From contig DATKKY010000328.1 in the NCBI GenBank assembly GCA_035542695.1, forward strand, positions 1-37,941: a stretch of DNA of 37,941 bases, given 5' to 3'. The notes under the pieces were generated by a model. That model saw only the letters and a program-made list of their open reading frames with translations, was not told the origin of the DNA and did not search any database. Origin of the DNA: a bacterium. GTDB lineage: Bacteria > Arandabacterota > Arandabacteria > Arandabacterales > Arandabacteraceae. Within the stretch, counting starts at the first letter, position 1; each line of letters opens with the position of its first letter. Below, piece by piece: positions 2,061 through 37,941 of this stretch. The position numbers and the translations under genes were made by a program.

Positions 2061-4616
2061 ATGAAGCCCCAGCGGACCGTGGCAACATCCGTGATCACAG
2101 CTTTGGCTCTGGCGCTTGTGCTCGCCGCCAGTCAAGCGGCCGCGCTCGATATCTCGACGCCATCGCCGATCTATTCCTATTTCGAGGGGCTGCGGGGGAG
2201 ATTGCCCCTCTGGACACCGGCAACTCCCGATGACCCGCTGTCAGCCTGGGTGAATCCAGCGACCCTGGGCACGGGCCGGGCCTCAGGAATCGGTTACCTT
2301 CACACGTACAACGATTCCACCTTTTCCGGCGACGACGCCTTCGTCATATCTCTTGGAAGCATGGCCTTCGGGGCTGAATTCATGAGGCTCCGGGAGACAC
2401 CTTTCTCATTCTCGACCAAGAGGGCCCACCGGTACACGCTTGCGTCGGGCCAGCGGCTTTTCAAGGGAGTCTACCTAGGCACGTCTTATTCGTGGATGAC
2501 CTCGGCGATCTCTGAGCTCGACCGCGCATCTACCTGGTCGGCGGGGTTACTGGTGCGACCGACCAGGATGCTGTCGCTGGGCCTGGTCGGCCGGGACCTC
2601 AATAGCCCAACCTATTATGGCAACAAGATGAAGCCCATCTACGAAGCTTCACTCGGTTTCAGGCCAGTGGGTGAGAGACTCACGGTCTTCACCACCTACT
2701 ACGCCCGTGCAGACAAACTCGAGATTCGGCCCCCCGACGGAAACGGCCAGGTGCTGGAGACCCAGCCAAGGTCTTTCTTTACGTATGGGATCGAGCTCGA
2801 ACCGGTGCCGGGTTTTGTGGTGCGGGTGGGGGCTGACGAGGACGAGAACATCAGCACCTCGTTCACGCTCGCTGCGGGCAATCTCGGGCTGGGTTCGCTC
2901 TTCACCAGGCTCAAGTCAGACAAGAAGAGCGAGCGAACCTACGGAACCGCCACGCTCACCACTTCTCCGTTCTGGCACTACAACGCCATGATGCCCCGGA
3001 ACGGCTACCTTGAGATCGAGATGGAAGGTTCCATCGCTGAAACGCAGCCGCCCTTTAGCCTGCTCGGTGGAGGCGGCCCACGTTACACCTTGCGGGGATT
3101 GCTGGATCGCATCGGCCGGGCCAAACAGTCGCCCGAGATCAATGCGATACTGCTCAAGTGCACCGGTATCTCGGCCAATTTCTCCATATTGGATGAACTT
3201 CGTCAGGCCTTGCTTGACTTTCGTTCCTCGGGCAAGCGGGTCATAGCCTACGTGGAAAGCCCGGGTAACGGCGAGTACTACCTCGCCTCAGCCTGCGACT
3301 ACATAATCATCATCCCCAATGGCTATCTCGGGCTCGTGGGGCTCAAGGCCGAAGGGATGTTCTTGAAGGGCACCCTCGACAAGCTGGGTGTCGAGGCCAA
3401 GTACACCAAGGTAGGCAAGTACAAATCGGCGGTCGAGGCTTTCACTGAGAATCAATTCACCGAGCCGAGCCGGGAGGCCGAGAATGCTCTTCTCGACGAC
3501 ATCTATGCCAAGTTCGTGAGCGACCTGGCCCGAGGCCGCAACATGACCGACGAGGCGATGCGCCAGGCGATCGATGCTGGGCCTTACGTTCCTGATGAGG
3601 CCTTCAAGGCCGGCCTGGTTGACACGGTAGCTTACTGGGACCAGGTGCCCGACATCGTCTCCAAGGTGCTCAACGCCGGCTCCCATTCGATGCCTTACGA
3701 TACCTTCGCCCGGCGGAACTATGGCAGCGCCCGCTGGGGCGAGCGTCCTGTGGTAGGCATAGTCTATGCCGTCGGATCAATCGAGCCCGGCACCAGCAGG
3801 CGGGACATGCTGCTCGGCGACATAATGGGCTCGGAGACAATCACCAGGGCAATCCGGGCGATGCGGGAAGACAATTCCGTGAAGGCAGTCGTTATGCGGG
3901 TGGATAGTCCCGGAGGCGTGATGACTGCCTCCGACCTGATAAGGCGGGAGATCGAACTCACCCGGAAGGAGAAACCAGTTATTGTGTCGATGGGGGGCGT
4001 TGCCGCCTCCGGCGGTTATCACATCTCCTGCGCCGCCAACACCATCTTGGCCGACAACACAACCATCACGGGTTCGATCGGGGTCTTCAATCTATGGTTC
4101 CACACCCGGGGCCTCTACCAGAAGCTGGGCGTCAACAAGGAGATTTTCACCCGCGGCAAGCACGCTGACCCCATGCCCGCCTGGCGTGATATCACCGAAG
4201 ATGACATGAACCTGATGCAGTACTTCGTCGATCAGTACTACGCCAAGTTCGTCAACGACGTGGCCAAAGGACGCGGCATGAACCCCGACAGCATCGGCGC
4301 TATTGCCCAGGGCCGGGTGTGGTCGGGCAGGGCCGCCCTCCAGAATGGCCTGGTGGATGGCATAGGCGGACTCGCGGTGGCTATCAGGGCGGCCCGCGAT
4401 GCGGCCGGAATTCCGGCTGATGAGGAAGTCGAGTTCCGGGTGCTGCCCACGGGCGGCGGCTTGCTGGAGAAGTTCGTGGGCTCCTTCCAGGGCCGCGCAG
4501 CCACCAAGCTGGAAATACCCGATCAGCTGAGGGAACTCGTCGGAGACAGTGCTTACCTGTCGGCGTTCGACGAGCCCTTCCTCTATCTGGCGCCCTATAC
4601 GCTGGTCATAAAGTAG
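2061..4616 (+). CDS. sppA: Signal peptide peptidase SppA, 67K (tandem S49) type, with a ~300-aa beta-rich N-terminal extension
   Basis: Cleavable-looking signal peptide MKPQRTVATSVITALALALVLAASQAAA. The first S49 half carries VGKYKSAVEAF (general-base Lys region). The second half carries MRVDSPGG..VSMGGVAASGGYHISCAAN..TGSIGV (nucleophile Ser region). SD lies upstream. Confidence 0.9.
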   Translation: MKPQRTVATSVITALALALVLAASQAAALDISTPSPIYSYFEGLRGRLPLWTPATPDDPLSAWVNPATLGTGRASGIGYLHTYNDSTFSGDDAFVISLGSMAFGAEFMRLRETPFSFSTKRAHRYTLASGQRLFKGVYLGTSYSWMTSAISELDRASTWSAGLLVRPTRMLSLGLVGRDLNSPTYYGNKMKPIYEASLGFRPVGERLTVFTTYYARADKLEIRPPDGNGQVLETQPRSFFTYGIELEPVPGFVVRVGADEDENISTSFTLAAGNLGLGSLFTRLKSDKKSERTYGTATLTTSPFWHYNAMMPRNGYLEIEMEGSIAETQPPFSLLGGGGPRYTLRGLLDRIGRAKQSPEINAILLKCTGISANFSILDELRQALLDFRSSGKRVIAYVESPGNGEYYLASACDYIIIIPNGYLGLVGLKAEGMFLKGTLDKLGVEAKYTKVGKYKSAVEAFTENQFTEPSREAENALLDDIYAKFVSDLARGRNMTDEAMRQAIDAGPYVPDEAFKAGLVDTVAYWDQVPDIVSKVLNAGSHSMPYDTFARRNYGSARWGERPVVGIVYAVGSIEPGTSRRDMLLGDIMGSETITRAIRAMREDNSVKAVVMRVDSPGGVMTASDLIRREIELTRKEKPVIVSMGGVAASGGYHISCAANTILADNTTITGSIGVFNLWFHTRGLYQKLGVNKEIFTRGKHADPMPAWRDITEDDMNLMQYFVDQYYAKFVNDVAKGRGMNPDSIGAIAQGRVWSGRAALQNGLVDGIGGLAVAIRAARDAAGIPADEEVEFRVLPTGGGLLEKFVGSFQGRAATKLEIPDQLRELVGDSAYLSAFDEPFLYLAPYTLVIK

Positions 4617-4629
4617 AGCCGGGAGCGGC

Positions 4630-5694
4630 TTATCGGCTGAAGTTGCTCTGCTTGTCCAACTCCAGGACGAAGGCAGCCATCAGTCTGGCGCACTGCTCCA
4701 GATCGCCGAGATGGATCACTTCAACCGGTGTGTGCATATACCTGTTAGGCACGCTCAAGAGGCCACAGGCCACACCGCCGCGTGACTTGAACACCGCATC
4801 CGCATCGGTACCCGTCCACCTGGGCGCTGCCGACACCTGAAACGGAATCTTCTTGGCCCGAGCCACTTTCATCAGAGCTTCCTCGACCCGCGGGCTTACC
4901 GAGGACCCCCGGTCAATGATGGGACCAAGGCCCAGCTTGACTTCGCCGTGCCGTTCTTTCGAGATGCCCGGCGTGTCGGTCGCATTCCCGACATCGACTG
5001 CAATGGCAACGCTGGGTTCGATGTGGAAGGCGCTGGTCAGGGCTCCGGCGAAAGATATCTCTTCCTGCACGGATGAGACGCCGAACACGGCAGCCTGAAG
5101 CTTCTTCTCGTGGGCAAGCAGCCGCAGGGCTTCAGCGACCACAAAGGCACCCATCTTGTCGTCGAAGCCCCGGGCGACCGCCAGGTCACCGGAGAGAATC
5201 TCGAAGCCCAGATCGAACACCACCGGGTCGCCAATTGCGACTCGCTTCAAGGTTTCTTCCTTGTTCTTCGCTCCGATGTCGATCCACATTTCGTGCAGCT
5301 TCAGTGTCTTCTTTTCATCCTCCCGATCCTGAAGATGAATCGCGGTCCGGCCGATCACGCCCTTGACTGGCCCCTTGGCGGTGCTGATGATCACGCGCTT
5401 GGCCGGGACGATGTTGGGGTCCACTCCGCCAATCGACCCGAAGTAGATGAACCCCTGGTCATTGACGTACTTGACCATGAAGCCCACTTCGTCGCAGTGG
5501 CCGATCAGCATCACCCGCGGCTTGCCGGTCCGGTTGAGAACGCCTACCGCATTGCCCTGAACGTCGGACTCCACCTTGTCCGCAAACTGGGTAACATAAG
5601 ACCGCCAGACCTGCTGAGCCGGGCGTTCGAAGCCTGACGGGCTCGGCGTGTTGACGAACTTCTCCAGGAAAGCCAGTGATTTCTTGTCCAACAT
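4630..5694 (-). CDS. M42 family metallo-aminopeptidase (FrvX/YsdC/TET-like)
   Basis: N-terminus LEKFVNTPSPSGFE and the core IGHCDEVGFMVKYV..GFIYF..IGG are typical of M42 peptidases. Length of 354 aa is typical. Confidence 0.85.
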   Translation of the reverse strand: MLDKKSLAFLEKFVNTPSPSGFERPAQQVWRSYVTQFADKVESDVQGNAVGVLNRTGKPRVMLIGHCDEVGFMVKYVNDQGFIYFGSIGGVDPNIVPAKRVIISTAKGPVKGVIGRTAIHLQDREDEKKTLKLHEMWIDIGAKNKEETLKRVAIGDPVVFDLGFEILSGDLAVARGFDDKMGAFVVAEALRLLAHEKKLQAAVFGVSSVQEEISFAGALTSAFHIEPSVAIAVDVGNATDTPGISKERHGEVKLGLGPIIDRGSSVSPRVEEALMKVARAKKIPFQVSAAPRWTGTDADAVFKSRGGVACGLLSVPNRYMHTPVEVIHLGDLEQCARLMAAFVLELDKQSNFSR

Positions 5695-5704
5695 AGTCTC
5701 CCTC

Positions 5705-35049: not shown

Positions 35050-36009
35050 CTACAGCCTCCGCTTGAGGGTCGGGTTGTAACCGAGTGTCGCATCGGCAGC
35101 AAGCTTATCCAGCCGCTTGGCGCCGCCCACGCGCTCCAGGTAAGCCTTGTGGTCCTTCACCCCGTAAACGAAGTCGTTCAAGTAGCTTTCGAAGGTCTTG
35201 GCGTCCTTGGCCCTATCGTGGTAGATCGCCAGCTGCTCGGGATCGTAGTCATAGTATTTGTAGCAAGCGTAAGGATGGGCCCCGTAAGGCACTTCGACGA
35301 CGTGATCCACCCTAAAGAACGGGATCTGGTTGCGCTCAGCCTCCGCCCTCAGCTGGTTGGCATCCACCACCTCTTCGCATGTGACGATCAAGGTGCGGGC
35401 GCCAAGCGCCTCCTGGACATCGCCAAAGCTCTGGCCCAGAATTCGCACTGTGCCATCGGACCCGACCTGCTGGGCGTGCAGCACGCAGAAATCCGCATTG
35501 ATCGCCGGGACCAGCACCAGGTTCTCGTGAGTGAAGGGGCACTCCATGGTATGGAACTTGGCGGACGCTATCTTGGGGTTGGCCGCCCGCGTGGTCTGCG
35601 GGAAGCCCTCGCGCTTCAGGAGGTCTGAGCCGAACATGGTCTTGGTCGGCAAGAAAGGAAGGCCCAAAGCCCCAGCAGAGAAGCGCAACACCATGGCAAA
35701 ATTGCTGTAGTCCTCCCACTCAATCGCACCTTCCTCAATCGCACGCCTGAGGCACGGGCCTATGGTCCCAAACGCCTCGTCAGCTTCGTAGGCGATCTCG
35801 ATTCTCGCGACACATCCCGCGCCGATCAGGATATCCAGGTCCCCGCCGGGCGAATGACCGTAAACATGGAGGTTGCGCTTCTTCTGGCGGATCATCTCGT
35901 AGATCAAGGCCATCGGGTGGCGCTGGACAGTAAAGCCGCCGAAGGCGATGTGCGCCCCGTCGGGAATCATGCGGACAACTTCCTCGAGCGATGTGAACTT
36001 CTCTGGCAT
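35050..36009 (-). CDS. CoA-transferase subunit A (family I)
   Basis: MPEKFTSLEEVVRMIPDGAHIAFGGFT..RHPMALIYEMIR, at 319 aa. The 93 upstream codons of the track ORF (up to 36288) are rejected. They are low-complexity and overlap the divergent promoter and riboswitch. Confidence 0.8.
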   Translation of the reverse strand: MPEKFTSLEEVVRMIPDGAHIAFGGFTVQRHPMALIYEMIRQKKRNLHVYGHSPGGDLDILIGAGCVARIEIAYEADEAFGTIGPCLRRAIEEGAIEWEDYSNFAMVLRFSAGALGLPFLPTKTMFGSDLLKREGFPQTTRAANPKIASAKFHTMECPFTHENLVLVPAINADFCVLHAQQVGSDGTVRILGQSFGDVQEALGARTLIVTCEEVVDANQLRAEAERNQIPFFRVDHVVEVPYGAHPYACYKYYDYDPEQLAIYHDRAKDAKTFESYLNDFVYGVKDHKAYLERVGGAKRLDKLAADATLGYNPTLKRRL

Positions 36010-36130: not shown

Positions 36131-36159
36131 TTGACTCGCCCCACGCAGGGGTGTAGGAT
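36131..36159 (+). promoter_or_regulatory. Sigma70-type promoter driving the TPP riboswitch transcript
   Basis: TTGACT (36131-36136), 17-nt spacer, TAGGAT (36154-36159). The predicted transcription start falls a few nt before the aptamer P1. Confidence 0.5.
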
Positions 36160-36164
36160 TGGGC

Positions 36165-36260
36165 CTGCGTTGGGGGAGCTCGGTAGGCCGGGCTGAGAGA
36201 GCGAGCAATCGCTGACCCCTCGAACCTGATCCGGACAATGCCGGCGGAGGGATGCGCTCG
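36165..36260 (+). promoter_or_regulatory. TPP (THI-element) riboswitch aptamer
   Basis: GGGGAGC..(CUCGG-UAGG-CCGGG)..CUGAGAG..(AGCGA-GCAA-UCGCU)..ACCCCUCGAACCUGAUCCGGACAAUGCCGGCGGAGGGA matches the conserved THI-box core (GGGGUGC..CUGAGA..ACCC..GAACCUGAUCNGGNUAAUNCCNGCGNAGGGA) almost position for position. Confidence 0.9.
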
Positions 36261-36336
36261 CTACGAGATCTTCCTCCGCTGTGCGCACGCTGTCCTGACC
36301 AGGTTCTAGCCGACCGAATTGGTGGAGGTGTTCCCG

Positions 36337-37446
36337 ATGGCAGAAGGCACGACTGGCAAGCCAGGGACTGGCGGCTTGATCCCTCGAGCCAAGTTCCCGG
36401 CGGTGGGCAAGATCTCGCCGGAGTTCTTCGATGAGGTCATATATCCGCGACTGGGCGCCGCGAGGCCCGAGGTAGTGGTCTCACCCCAGCACGGGGTGGA
36501 CTGTGGCGTTGTCAAGATCGGGGATGGCCGGGTAATGGTCGTCACCACTGACCCCATCTTTATCGTGCCCGAATACGGCTTCGAGCGAGCGGCTTGGTTT
36601 GCCTGGCATATCCTGGCTTCGGATGTCACCACCAGCGGGTTTCCGCCAGCGTACGTGATCGTCGATTTCAACTTGCCCCTGAAGATGACCGAAAACCAAT
36701 TCGCTACCCTCTGGGAGGTCTTTGACCGCGAGAGCCGCAAGTACGGCGCCCAGGTAATCACGGGCCACACTGCAAGGTACGTCGGCACGGACTATCCCAT
36801 GGTTGGAGGGGCAACTTTCATTGCTGTCGGGCCCGAGGACAAGTACGTCCATCCCGGCATGGCTCAGCCAGGCGACACGATTGTGGTCACCAAAGGTGCA
36901 GCGATTGAGGCAACCGGCATCTTCGCCTGCGCCTTCCCGGAAACCATAAGGCAGCACCTCGGAGAAACCGTTCTCCGGGAGGGGCAGGAGATCTTCTTCA
37001 AGATGTCAACGGTTGACGATGCGATCACGGCTGCGGGCATCGGGGTTCGTGAGCAAGGCATCACGGCCATGCACGACGCCACCGAGTGCGGCGTGATCGG
37101 AGGCCTCTTTGAGATCGCCCAGGCTTCTCGTACCGGCATAGCGGTGGACGTGGACAAGGTCCCCGTGCCGCGGGCTGCTGGGGCTATTTGCAAGCACTTC
37201 GGAATGGACCCGCTCACATCGATAAGCGAAGGAACCTTGTTGATTGCTGTCAAGCAGCGCAAGGCCGAAACCCTGCTCGCGACCCTGCGGGCGAGGGGCA
37301 TCCAAGCTGAGGCCGTGGGTGAGATCCTGGCGCGAAAAGAGGGCTTCCGGATGATCCAAGACGGCCAAAGCAAGCCCCTTGAGCATCCCAGGGTAGATCC
37401 GTTCTGGCCAGCGATGGACCGGGCGATGCAGGCGGGCCTGAAGTAG
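36337..37446 (+). CDS. PurM/HypE/ThiL-superfamily (AIR-synthase-related) ATP-dependent enzyme, subfamily unassigned
   Basis: HGVDCGVVKIGDGRVMVVTTDP, ASDVTTSGFPP..V.FNLP, QVITGHT and AMHDATECGVIGGL fit the two-domain PurM-like fold. There is no HypE-type C-terminal Cys. ATG 36337 sits 8 nt after GGAGG; the track start GTG 36319 lies inside the SD. Confidence 0.7.
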   Translation: MAEGTTGKPGTGGLIPRAKFPAVGKISPEFFDEVIYPRLGAARPEVVVSPQHGVDCGVVKIGDGRVMVVTTDPIFIVPEYGFERAAWFAWHILASDVTTSGFPPAYVIVDFNLPLKMTENQFATLWEVFDRESRKYGAQVITGHTARYVGTDYPMVGGATFIAVGPEDKYVHPGMAQPGDTIVVTKGAAIEATGIFACAFPETIRQHLGETVLREGQEIFFKMSTVDDAITAAGIGVREQGITAMHDATECGVIGGLFEIAQASRTGIAVDVDKVPVPRAAGAICKHFGMDPLTSISEGTLLIAVKQRKAETLLATLRARGIQAEAVGEILARKEGFRMIQDGQSKPLEHPRVDPFWPAMDRAMQAGLK

Positions 37447-37502: not shown

Positions 37503-37941
37503 CTATGTCTGGAAGAGATACTGCAGCTTGAGGAAGTACTGCCGGCCGGCCAGGGACCAATCTCGAGCACCGGCCGTCCCCTCCTCGCCCTTTTGGTAAT
37601 CCTGCGTGGAGCCAATGTAGAAGATCGAGAAGGGGCTGACCTGGTACGTCACTAGCGGATCCACCTGCCAGGTGTTGCGGCTGTCATCGTACTGGAAGAC
37701 GATCCGGGCGGAGAGCTCACGGAGCACTTGGGCCGTCAGCTTCGACCTGAAGATCGTTTGTTCGAAGAGCTTCTCCCCGGTATTGACATCATCGCTCCCA
37801 ATGTGGTTGTAGGAGAGAGTCGCCGACAGGCGATTTGTGGGCTTGAGAGTGGCCGAGCCCCCATAGCAGAGCTGCTTGCCCACCGTCAGCTGCCAGCGGG
37901 CAATGCGGTGACCATAGCTAATGTTGGCTGAGCAGGCAAGG
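37503..37941 (-). CDS. Beta-barrel-like outer-membrane protein, C-terminal fragment (5' end beyond the window)
   Basis: The frame stays open from 37883 to the window edge. Alternating beta-strand pattern with a C-terminal ..FLKLQYLFQT typical of OMP termini. Confidence 0.5.
   Translation of the reverse strand, partial: LACSANISYGHRIARWQLTVGKQLCYGGSATLKPTNRLSATLSYNHIGSDDVNTGEKLFEQTIFRSKLTAQVLRELSARIVFQYDDSRNTWQVDPLVTYQVSPFSIFYIGSTQDYQKGEEGTAGARDWSLAGRQYFLKLQYLFQT

Follow-up and report, generated by a model that had tools for sequence, protein, structure and literature searches.

Gene X lies near the end of a 37,941-nt stretch of bacterial DNA (positions 1 to 37,941 of contig DATKKY010000328.1, assembly GCA_035542695.1; the whole stretch is referred to here as the window), where it follows a thiamine pyrophosphate (TPP) riboswitch. 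X is used as a working label for the 369-amino-acid protein encoded there and for its family. We found that X is a family of the PurM superfamily separate from ThiL, HypE, SelD, and PurM, and that the link of this family to thiamine is robust. Its genomic behavior resembles that of thiM, as X is found beside the thiamine-phosphate synthase, under riboswitch control, and with precursor importers, and the one core or salvage step for which no X genome has a known gene is that of providing the synthase (ThiE or ThiN) with thiazole phosphate. Given this gap and the thiM-like behavior, we tentatively favor, while placing it short of an even chance, the reading that X may supply thiazole phosphate as a functional analog of ThiM.

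The TPP riboswitch and the protein it controls

The TPP riboswitch was the only Rfam family found at gathering level in the window, with the RF00059 model matched from position 1 to 105 of 105 at 68.8 bits (gathering score, 54.3; E = 1.2e-11). An RF00059 search found no second TPP riboswitch in the rest of the assembly (2.68 Mb, 359 contigs, 89.9% complete), and gene X is the sole riboswitch-controlled thiamine gene on the available DNA of this genome. A promoter-like site, called by consensus match alone, stops 3 nt upstream of the aptamer and is the only one between positions 35900 and 37941. Downstream of the aptamer, the ribosome-binding site GGTGGAGG is located 8 nt upstream of the ATG of gene X, and CCUCCGCU (36273-36280) could base-pair with either of two segments, GCGGAGG (36244-36250) in the 3' strand of the aptamer and the ribosome-binding site, GGUGGAGG (36321-36328). 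In the minimum-free-energy fold of 36162-36350, positions 36240-36252 were paired with the CCUCCGC segment (z = -2.4), and a sequence scan found no terminator-like site between the aptamer and the ATG at 36337. Since CCUCCGCU can pair with the ribosome-binding site and no terminator-like site was seen, the leader is probably a translational OFF switch. The neighboring open reading frame (ORF) is convergent with X, and the gene is therefore monocistronic, as the sequence-only reading of the window had described it.

Translation likewise bore out the length given in that reading, the motifs it quoted (DCGV, residues 55-58; VVTTDP, 68-73; ITGHT, 141-145; AMHDATECG, 244-252), and a C terminus (...MQAGLK) devoid of the terminal Cys of HypE. 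Both Pfam domains of the superfamily scored above their cutoffs, with the N-terminal AIRS domain (PF00586) at 39.7 bits and the C-terminal AIRS_C domain (PF02769) at 81 bits. An AlphaFold model built from 24 orthologs (predicted local distance difference test score, 93.3) matched HypE, ThiL, and SelD structures, which together with the two domains places X in the PurM superfamily; the model is about equally far from all three (template modeling [TM] scores of 0.63 to 0.73 at 16 to 24% identity). Across phyla, the alignment of the 24 orthologs has a mean column identity of 67% and approximately 69 invariant positions. The invariant acidic and His/Thr residues among them (D55, D72, D96, D110, H144-T145, and H246-D247) would, judging by the fold, form a nucleotide and metal site.

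No NCBIfam model reached its cutoff on X. The best match was to ThiL (TIGR01379; 80.5 bits versus a cutoff of 184.15), with lower scores for HypE (TIGR02124; 71.6 versus 251.6) and SelD (TIGR00476; 57.5 versus 125, spanning residues 25-290). PurM (TIGR00878) was absent from the NCBIfam matches of X at E ≤ 1, and Pfam gave no HK domain (PF02110, the domain of ThiM) in X. Genes for ThiL, HypE, SelD, and PurM are all present elsewhere in the assembly, as is one for PurL. X is therefore a family in its own right, as it falls below all curated cutoffs in a genome with its own copies of the four enzymes. The sequence-only reading had set X apart from HypE and canonical ThiL, in agreement with these scores and the distant structures, and the canonical thiL that it proposed to look for elsewhere in the genome was found on contig C308. 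The same reading called X an orphan, which holds in that no curated family claims it and fails in that the family is not rare, with more than 593 relatives in species genomes of the Genome Taxonomy Database (GTDB).

Comparison with the better-known members of the superfamily supports this separation. ThiL (PDB 3C9R/3C9T and 5CM7) has in common with X a PurM-type two-domain fold (TM score, 0.58 to 0.65), putative ATP use, and a place in thiamine metabolism, and it provides the best-scoring curated model. Identity to ThiL in the structural alignment is nonetheless 16 to 18%, and X, for its part, has an N-terminal GKISP loop like that of SelD along with a conserved tail, HPRVDPFW. To our knowledge, riboswitch control and thiE adjacency of the kind seen for X are not typical of thiL. 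HypE, the carbamoyl dehydratase of [NiFe]-hydrogenase maturation (PDB 2I6R and 3WJP), is the nearest fold (TM score, 0.71 to 0.73), and among solved structures the Escherichia coli enzyme comes closest in sequence (52 bits). X lacks the C-terminal PRIC cysteine of HypE, and no hydrogenase genes were recognized beside X in the annotated loci. Public annotation nevertheless names the family "HypE," "hydrogenase maturation factor," or "AIR synthase family protein"; the "HypE" label, which many members carry in Joint Genome Institute (JGI) data, is a misannotation. With the selenophosphate synthetase SelD (PDB 3U0O and 2YYE), X shares the fold and an N-terminal lid motif, GCGCKISP in E. coli SelD and GKISP in X. 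SelD has a Cys or selenocysteine in this lid or N-terminal glycine-rich loop, unlike X, whose loop (AVGKIS) contains Cys in none of the 24 orthologs. The X alignment has no invariant Cys anywhere (C251 gives way to Gly in 2 of 24), and this speaks against chemistry of the persulfide or selenide type.

Genomic context of the X family

Orthologs of X that are 44 to 86% identical occur across bacteria and archaea. We collected 164 X loci, a few of them duplicates, from Eisenbacteria, WOR-3, Kryptoniota, Melioribacteraceae, Acidobacteriota, Planctomycetota, Verrucomicrobiota, Actinomycetota, Chloroflexota, Fraserbacteria, and Thermoproteota, the last including metagenome-assembled genomes (MAGs) of Sulfolobaceae. 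Flanks of approximately 4 to 5 kb were searched by tblastn, for which the X loci themselves provided the reference proteins. A thiamine-phosphate synthase was encoded near X in 76 of the 164 loci (ThiE in 47, ThiN in 8, and ThiDN in 21), 68 of them with the synthase on the same strand and within 400 nt. ThiD was found in 14 loci, ThiC in 10, an NCS1 (CytX-like) permease in 6, a class I methyltransferase in 6, ThiW in 2, and ThiL and a ThiY-like binding protein in 1 each; ThiM, ThiG, and thiamine pyrophosphokinase (TPK) were each found in none.

At least 22 loci have a TPP riboswitch that scores above the Rfam cutoff in front of X or of its operon. At this level the riboswitch is directly upstream of X in the window and in L016, L017, L019, and L020 (Eisenbacteria relatives), L041 (Planctomycetia), L132 and L135 (Verrucomicrobiota), L131, and L147. 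Our own TPP model (R1) returned 34 candidates in 98 further loci; 8 of the 15 that were rechecked passed the Rfam gathering score, and the rest are treated as leads.

Operon structure repeatedly ties X to the same pathway. In Melioribacteraceae and Kryptoniota the order is riboswitch-thiC-X-thiD-thiE, and six loci have X with thiC on one side and thiD on the other. Actinomycetota have riboswitch-thiE-X, and two Thermoproteota genomes (L079 and L092) have riboswitch-S component-methyltransferase-X-thiE, where the S component is that of an energy-coupling factor transporter and could be typed as neither ThiW nor ThiT. A Fraserbacteria locus reads riboswitch-ABC permease-ThiY-like binding protein-methyltransferase-X-thiE. 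The X and thiW genes, the latter encoding the thiazole transporter, overlap in a thiDN-X-thiW operon (L077 and L116), and an Acidobacteriota operon (L066) runs X-ThiE-ThiL, the same order as the pathway. Fusions of X to ThiD and to ThiN plus isochorismatase are represented by one record each. No in-frame ThiE-X fusion was present in the 164 loci, in which the long ORFs are out-of-frame artifacts. In a third long record, X is linked to the plug domain of a TonB receptor, an arrangement that may be an artifact of assembly or gene calling.

The sequence-only reading had proposed to check X for orthology to canonical ThiL and its orthologs for ties to TPP riboswitches or thiamine genes; no ThiL orthology was found, and the ties recur. 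The literature searched yielded nothing relevant on a link between this family and thiamine or riboswitches. Much of the same context is known for ThiM, the hydroxyethylthiazole kinase (PF02110, ribokinase-like fold), whose gene occurs beside or fused to thiamine-phosphate synthase genes, with TPP riboswitches, and with thiW and other precursor importers, and is kept with or without de novo thiazole synthesis. ThiM has no kinship to X in sequence or fold, and a common function is proposed from context.

Pathway content was then compared across genomes that carry X. The bacterial census covered 47 X-positive genomes, including that of the window. ThiL was present at or near its cutoff in approximately 41 and ThiE in 40; Thi4 was found in 19, ThiG in 5, and ThiM (PF02110) in none. 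Among the ThiL-less Melioribacteraceae, three of four have TPK, and the fourth is an incomplete MAG; TPK was searched for in five ThiL-less genomes in all and was present in 3 of the 5. Nineteen bacterial X genomes, one of them from the isolate Rosettibacter primus, have ThiE and lack ThiG, Thi4, and ThiM; ThiC was detected in 13 of the 14 tested.

The archaeal census covered 281 Thermoproteota genomes, with X called at 400 bits or more. X was found in 32, which are of two kinds. The first is a clade of 15, Sulfolobaceae among them, with Thi4, no strong ThiL match, and X apart from thiamine genes. Genomes of the second kind mostly have ThiL, lack Thi4 and ThiM, and carry X beside ThiN, ThiE, or ThiDN; six of them lack ThiC. 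ThiL together with an adjacent ThiN, ThiE, or ThiDN, and without Thi4 or ThiM, was seen in 10 archaeal X genomes, and ThiG in 0 of the 5 tested. In total, approximately 29 X genomes encode a thiamine monophosphate (TMP) synthase and none of ThiG, Thi4, and ThiM.

In the genome of the window, thiC is divided over two contig ends, with no TPP riboswitch upstream of the part on C136, and ThiD, ThiE, ThiN, ThiG, Thi4, and ThiM were not found in the assembly. The closest relatives (G001 to G003) have ThiE and ThiC, and ThiG, Thi4, and ThiM were not found in them. The missing thiD and thiE are probably in the unassembled 10%, and the absence of the thiazole branch appears real for this lineage.

Candidate reactions for X

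Under the reading that we favor, X would be an ATP-dependent enzyme of a distinct PurM-superfamily branch devoted to thiamine metabolism, acting at the step immediately before thiamine-phosphate synthase. It would use ATP to yield phosphorylated thiazole, from hydroxyethylthiazole or a carboxylated form, so that the role played by ThiM in other organisms would be filled by an unrelated fold. When TPP is abundant, the riboswitch would fold, the ribosome-binding site would be sequestered, and X would not be made. We infer both the substrate and the reaction by analogy, from genomic context.

Several observations weigh against this assignment. Known enzymes of the PurM superfamily have carbonyl or amide oxygens, phosphate, or selenide as their targets, and none is known to phosphorylate an alcohol. 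X is also retained where thiazole is made de novo, as in the bacteria with Thi4 or ThiG and the archaeal clade of 15. In six Bathyarchaeia loci that lack both X and ThiM, ThiDN-ThiW is accompanied by a conserved P-loop NTPase of approximately 190 amino acids. The gene for this NTPase also adjoins X in L077 and L116, and the protein is a rival candidate for the thiazole kinase; when ThiW-centered loci were compared, X was not seen to replace ThiM, and the P-loop NTPase was found as the neighbor instead. A class I S-adenosylmethionine-dependent methyltransferase recurs just ahead of X-thiE in three phyla (Thermoproteota, Kryptoniota, and Fraserbacteria); a simple kinase role for X does not account for it, and it hints at a less simple substrate. 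Most X genomes are MAGs, so that individual absences are uncertain. Finally, X and ThiM occur together in none of approximately 88 genomes and none of the 164 loci, which is consistent with a thiazole kinase and carries little statistical weight, because ThiM is rare in the sampled phyla: it is present in 32 of 301 Acidobacteriota (0 of 11 with X; expected overlap, 1.2) and in 12 of 281 Thermoproteota (0 of 32 with X; expected overlap, 1.4).

A rather unlikely alternative, and the most probable of the rivals, is that X performs another ATP-dependent step on the thiazole side, activating or ring-closing a modified or acyclic precursor, perhaps with the methyltransferase, in an unrecognized de novo or salvage route. 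It would account for the same gap in the approximately 29 genomes with a TMP synthase, and it draws on the methyltransferase-X-ThiE trio in three phyla, on the position of X after genes for Rrf2, a CysK-like protein, and MnmA in Eisenbacteria relatives, and on the possibility that the separate P-loop protein is the actual thiazole kinase. From general knowledge, PurM chemistry prefers carbonyl activation to alcohol phosphorylation, and PurM itself would offer an analogy in formyl activation and cyclization. X nevertheless shows no residue pattern for sulfur chemistry and no invariant Cys. A single enzyme cannot build the thiazole, no further partner is conserved across X loci, and the methyltransferase is found in just 6 of 164. 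In its most specific form, with X and possibly the methyltransferase making up a third route to thiazole phosphate in which a PurM-fold enzyme activates and closes or converts a precursor with ATP, we consider this proposal decidedly unlikely.

The sequence-only reading had listed a divergent TMP kinase among its possibilities. That X is a second, TPP-regulated kinase isofunctional with ThiL seems unlikely to us, given that true ThiL accompanies X in approximately 41 of 47 bacteria, including the genome of the window, and the two are encoded in one operon in L066. What speaks for such an enzyme is the rank of thiL as best curated model, the ThiL structural neighbor, the proximity of X to ThiE or ThiN, the enzymes that make TMP, and the lack of ThiL in Melioribacteraceae, where TPK is mostly present. 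ThiL matches are also absent from 17 of 32 archaeal X genomes versus 40 of 249 without X, and two complete genomes among the archaea with X but no ThiL match (G474 and G396) showed neither ThiL nor TPK; the archaeal enrichment is largely a single evolutionary event, because most such genomes belong to the one clade of 15. A TMP kinase would leave the thiazole-phosphate gap unexplained. As a general replacement of ThiL, X was rejected on the grounds of ThiL co-occurrence, the X-ThiE-ThiL operon, and TPK in ThiL-less relatives.

We regard it as very unlikely that X is a thiamine kinase, converting imported thiamine to TMP in the manner of ThiK and thereby supplying ThiL. Co-occurrence with ThiL in most genomes agrees with this role, as does the genome of the window, where X is monocistronic under its riboswitch and ThiD, ThiE, and ThiN were not found; the nearest relatives do have ThiE and ThiC, and the absence may stem from the 10% that the assembly lacks. 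Close coupling to ThiE or ThiN and to ThiD in at least 68 loci would be unexpected for a thiamine kinase, and in the ThiL-less genomes that carry X, TMP made from thiamine would be a dead end.

A place in the pyrimidine branch, as AIR (aminoimidazole ribotide) supplier or ThiC helper, hydroxymethylpyrimidine phosphate (HMP-P) kinase, or formylaminopyrimidine enzyme, is extremely improbable: the six loci with X between thiC and thiD, the importers beside X (NCS1 in 6 loci, ThiY-like in 1), and the N-formyl substrates that PurM enzymes generally use are outweighed by six archaeal X genomes without ThiC, a separate PurM in the genome of the window, redundancy of an HMP-P kinase with the adjacent ThiD, and a strongest linkage to TMP synthase and not to ThiC. 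The six ThiC-less genomes led us to reject an AIR supplier or ThiC helper and, with the separate PurM, effectively refute the PurM-like source of AIR for HMP that the sequence-only reading had offered. Its third suggestion, an enzyme that uses ATP to salvage or activate a thiamine moiety, still stands in narrowed form, on the thiazole side of thiamine-phosphate synthase; this is where the supply of thiazole phosphate by X, the reading that we tentatively favor, would belong.

Neighboring genes and meaning for thiamine biology

The features with coordinates are collected in Table 1. The ThiM-like context of X is accompanied in some lineages by genes and paralogs that we record here as observations in their own right. 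The genome of the window encodes a further PurM-superfamily paralog on C85 whose N-terminal layout resembles that of X. Approximately 44 Thermoproteota genomes carry a second-tier paralog scoring 237 to 279 bits to the X profile, and 13 of these 44 matches, among the matches listed, contain a single in-frame stop (11 TAA and 2 TGA), which could reflect a split gene, recoding, or an alignment artifact.

TABLE 1 Coordinates of features in the window, in the rest of its assembly, and in other X-related loci and genomes
Feature	Sequence	Position	Strand	Remarks
Promoter-like site TTGACT-17-TAGGAT	Window	36131-36159	+	Sigma-70-like; consensus scan, 9/12 positions match
TPP riboswitch aptamer (THI element)	Window	36162-36269	+	Rfam RF00059
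Expression platform	Window	36270-36336	+	Sequence reading and fold
Gene X, PurM (AIR-synthase-related) superfamily	Window	36337-37446	+	369 aa; Pfam AIRS and AIRS_C
ORF downstream of X	Window	37503-37940	-	Convergent with X
Canonical ThiL	C308			294.8 bits (TIGR01379)
HypE	C351			PRIC end
SelD	C8			
PurM	C124			
PurM-superfamily paralog	C85	2501-3517	+	338 aa; best match hypE, 98 bits, below cutoff
thiC, part	C67	8554-9504		Contig end
thiC, part	C136	2-310		Contig end
Second-tier X paralog	G577:C16	7996-8997		Example
Second-tier X paralog	G523:C63	3223-4224		Example
Second-tier X paralog	G406:C3	143471-144478		Example
P-loop NTPase	L104	4572-5147		
P-loop NTPase	L106	4584-5198		
P-loop NTPase	L107	4545-5141		
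P-loop NTPase	L108	4578-5153		
P-loop NTPase	L077	6630-7187		
P-loop NTPase	L103	4557-5114		
Methyltransferase	L092	3914-4600		
Methyltransferase	L079	4343-5008		
Methyltransferase	L154	3796-4476		
Methyltransferase	L172			
Methyltransferase	L180			
Methyltransferase	L181	3821-4465		
ThiN-domain protein	L073	6209-7138		Beside thiDN-X
ThiN-domain protein	L077	2602-3531		Strand opposite thiDN-X
ThiN-domain protein	L103	528-1499		Strand opposite thiDN-X
Rrf2 and CysK-like genes upstream of X	L014, L017, L018	~2400-5700		Eisenbacteria-like

The P-loop NTPase has a Walker A motif (GxxGxGKT) and no match in Pfam, NCBIfam, or PDB. In thiDN-thiW operons of Bathyarchaeia and Thermoprotei its gene always comes after thiW and overlaps the thiW end, and Atlas clusters for the family fall in Thermoproteota and Thermodesulfobacteriota. 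It is a candidate for a new thiazole kinase or an energizer of ThiW. The methyltransferase gave weak matches to the BioC, UbiE, and DVU_1556 families. Proteins of 309 to 323 amino acids that combine a ThiN domain at the C terminus with an additional domain at the N terminus are encoded beside thiDN-X in three loci; they resemble the ThiR-type thiamine regulators of archaea.

In three Eisenbacteria-like loci, an Rrf2 regulator gene and a gene for a CysK-like pyridoxal phosphate enzyme lie upstream of X. Two of these (L017 and L018) also have a gene for the tRNA thiouridylase MnmA between the CysK-like gene and X and a DedA/VTT membrane protein gene after X, and in L017 the TPP riboswitch is located between mnmA and X. 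In five loci of the ThiL-less archaeal clade (L074 to L076, L078, and L081), no thiamine genes flank X, and its neighbors encode a conserved major facilitator superfamily transporter, a GNAT acetyltransferase, and two further proteins, one thioredoxin-like and one DsrE-like.

The pathway to thiamine is generally taken to be solved, and yet X, which is under TPP control, is spread across many bacterial and archaeal phyla, and ranks among the most conserved proteins of its thiamine operons, has no assigned reaction. Because the family is annotated as HypE or AIR synthase and its reaction is unassigned, predictions of vitamin B1 auxotrophy may be wrong for Eisenbacteria, WOR-3, Kryptoniota, relatives of Ignavibacteria, many Actinomycetota, and Thermoproteota. 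Orthologs of X are present in the cultured Rosettibacter primus and in MAGs assigned to Saccharolobus, Acidianus, and other Sulfolobaceae, some of whose members can be manipulated genetically, and the function should therefore be directly testable. A third route to thiazole phosphate, if true, would explain thiamine synthesis in the approximately 29 genomes that have ThiC, ThiD, and ThiE (or ThiN) and lack ThiG, Thi4, and ThiM. If X supplies thiazole phosphate, it would close a pathway hole in dozens of genomes and represent a reaction type new to the PurM superfamily.

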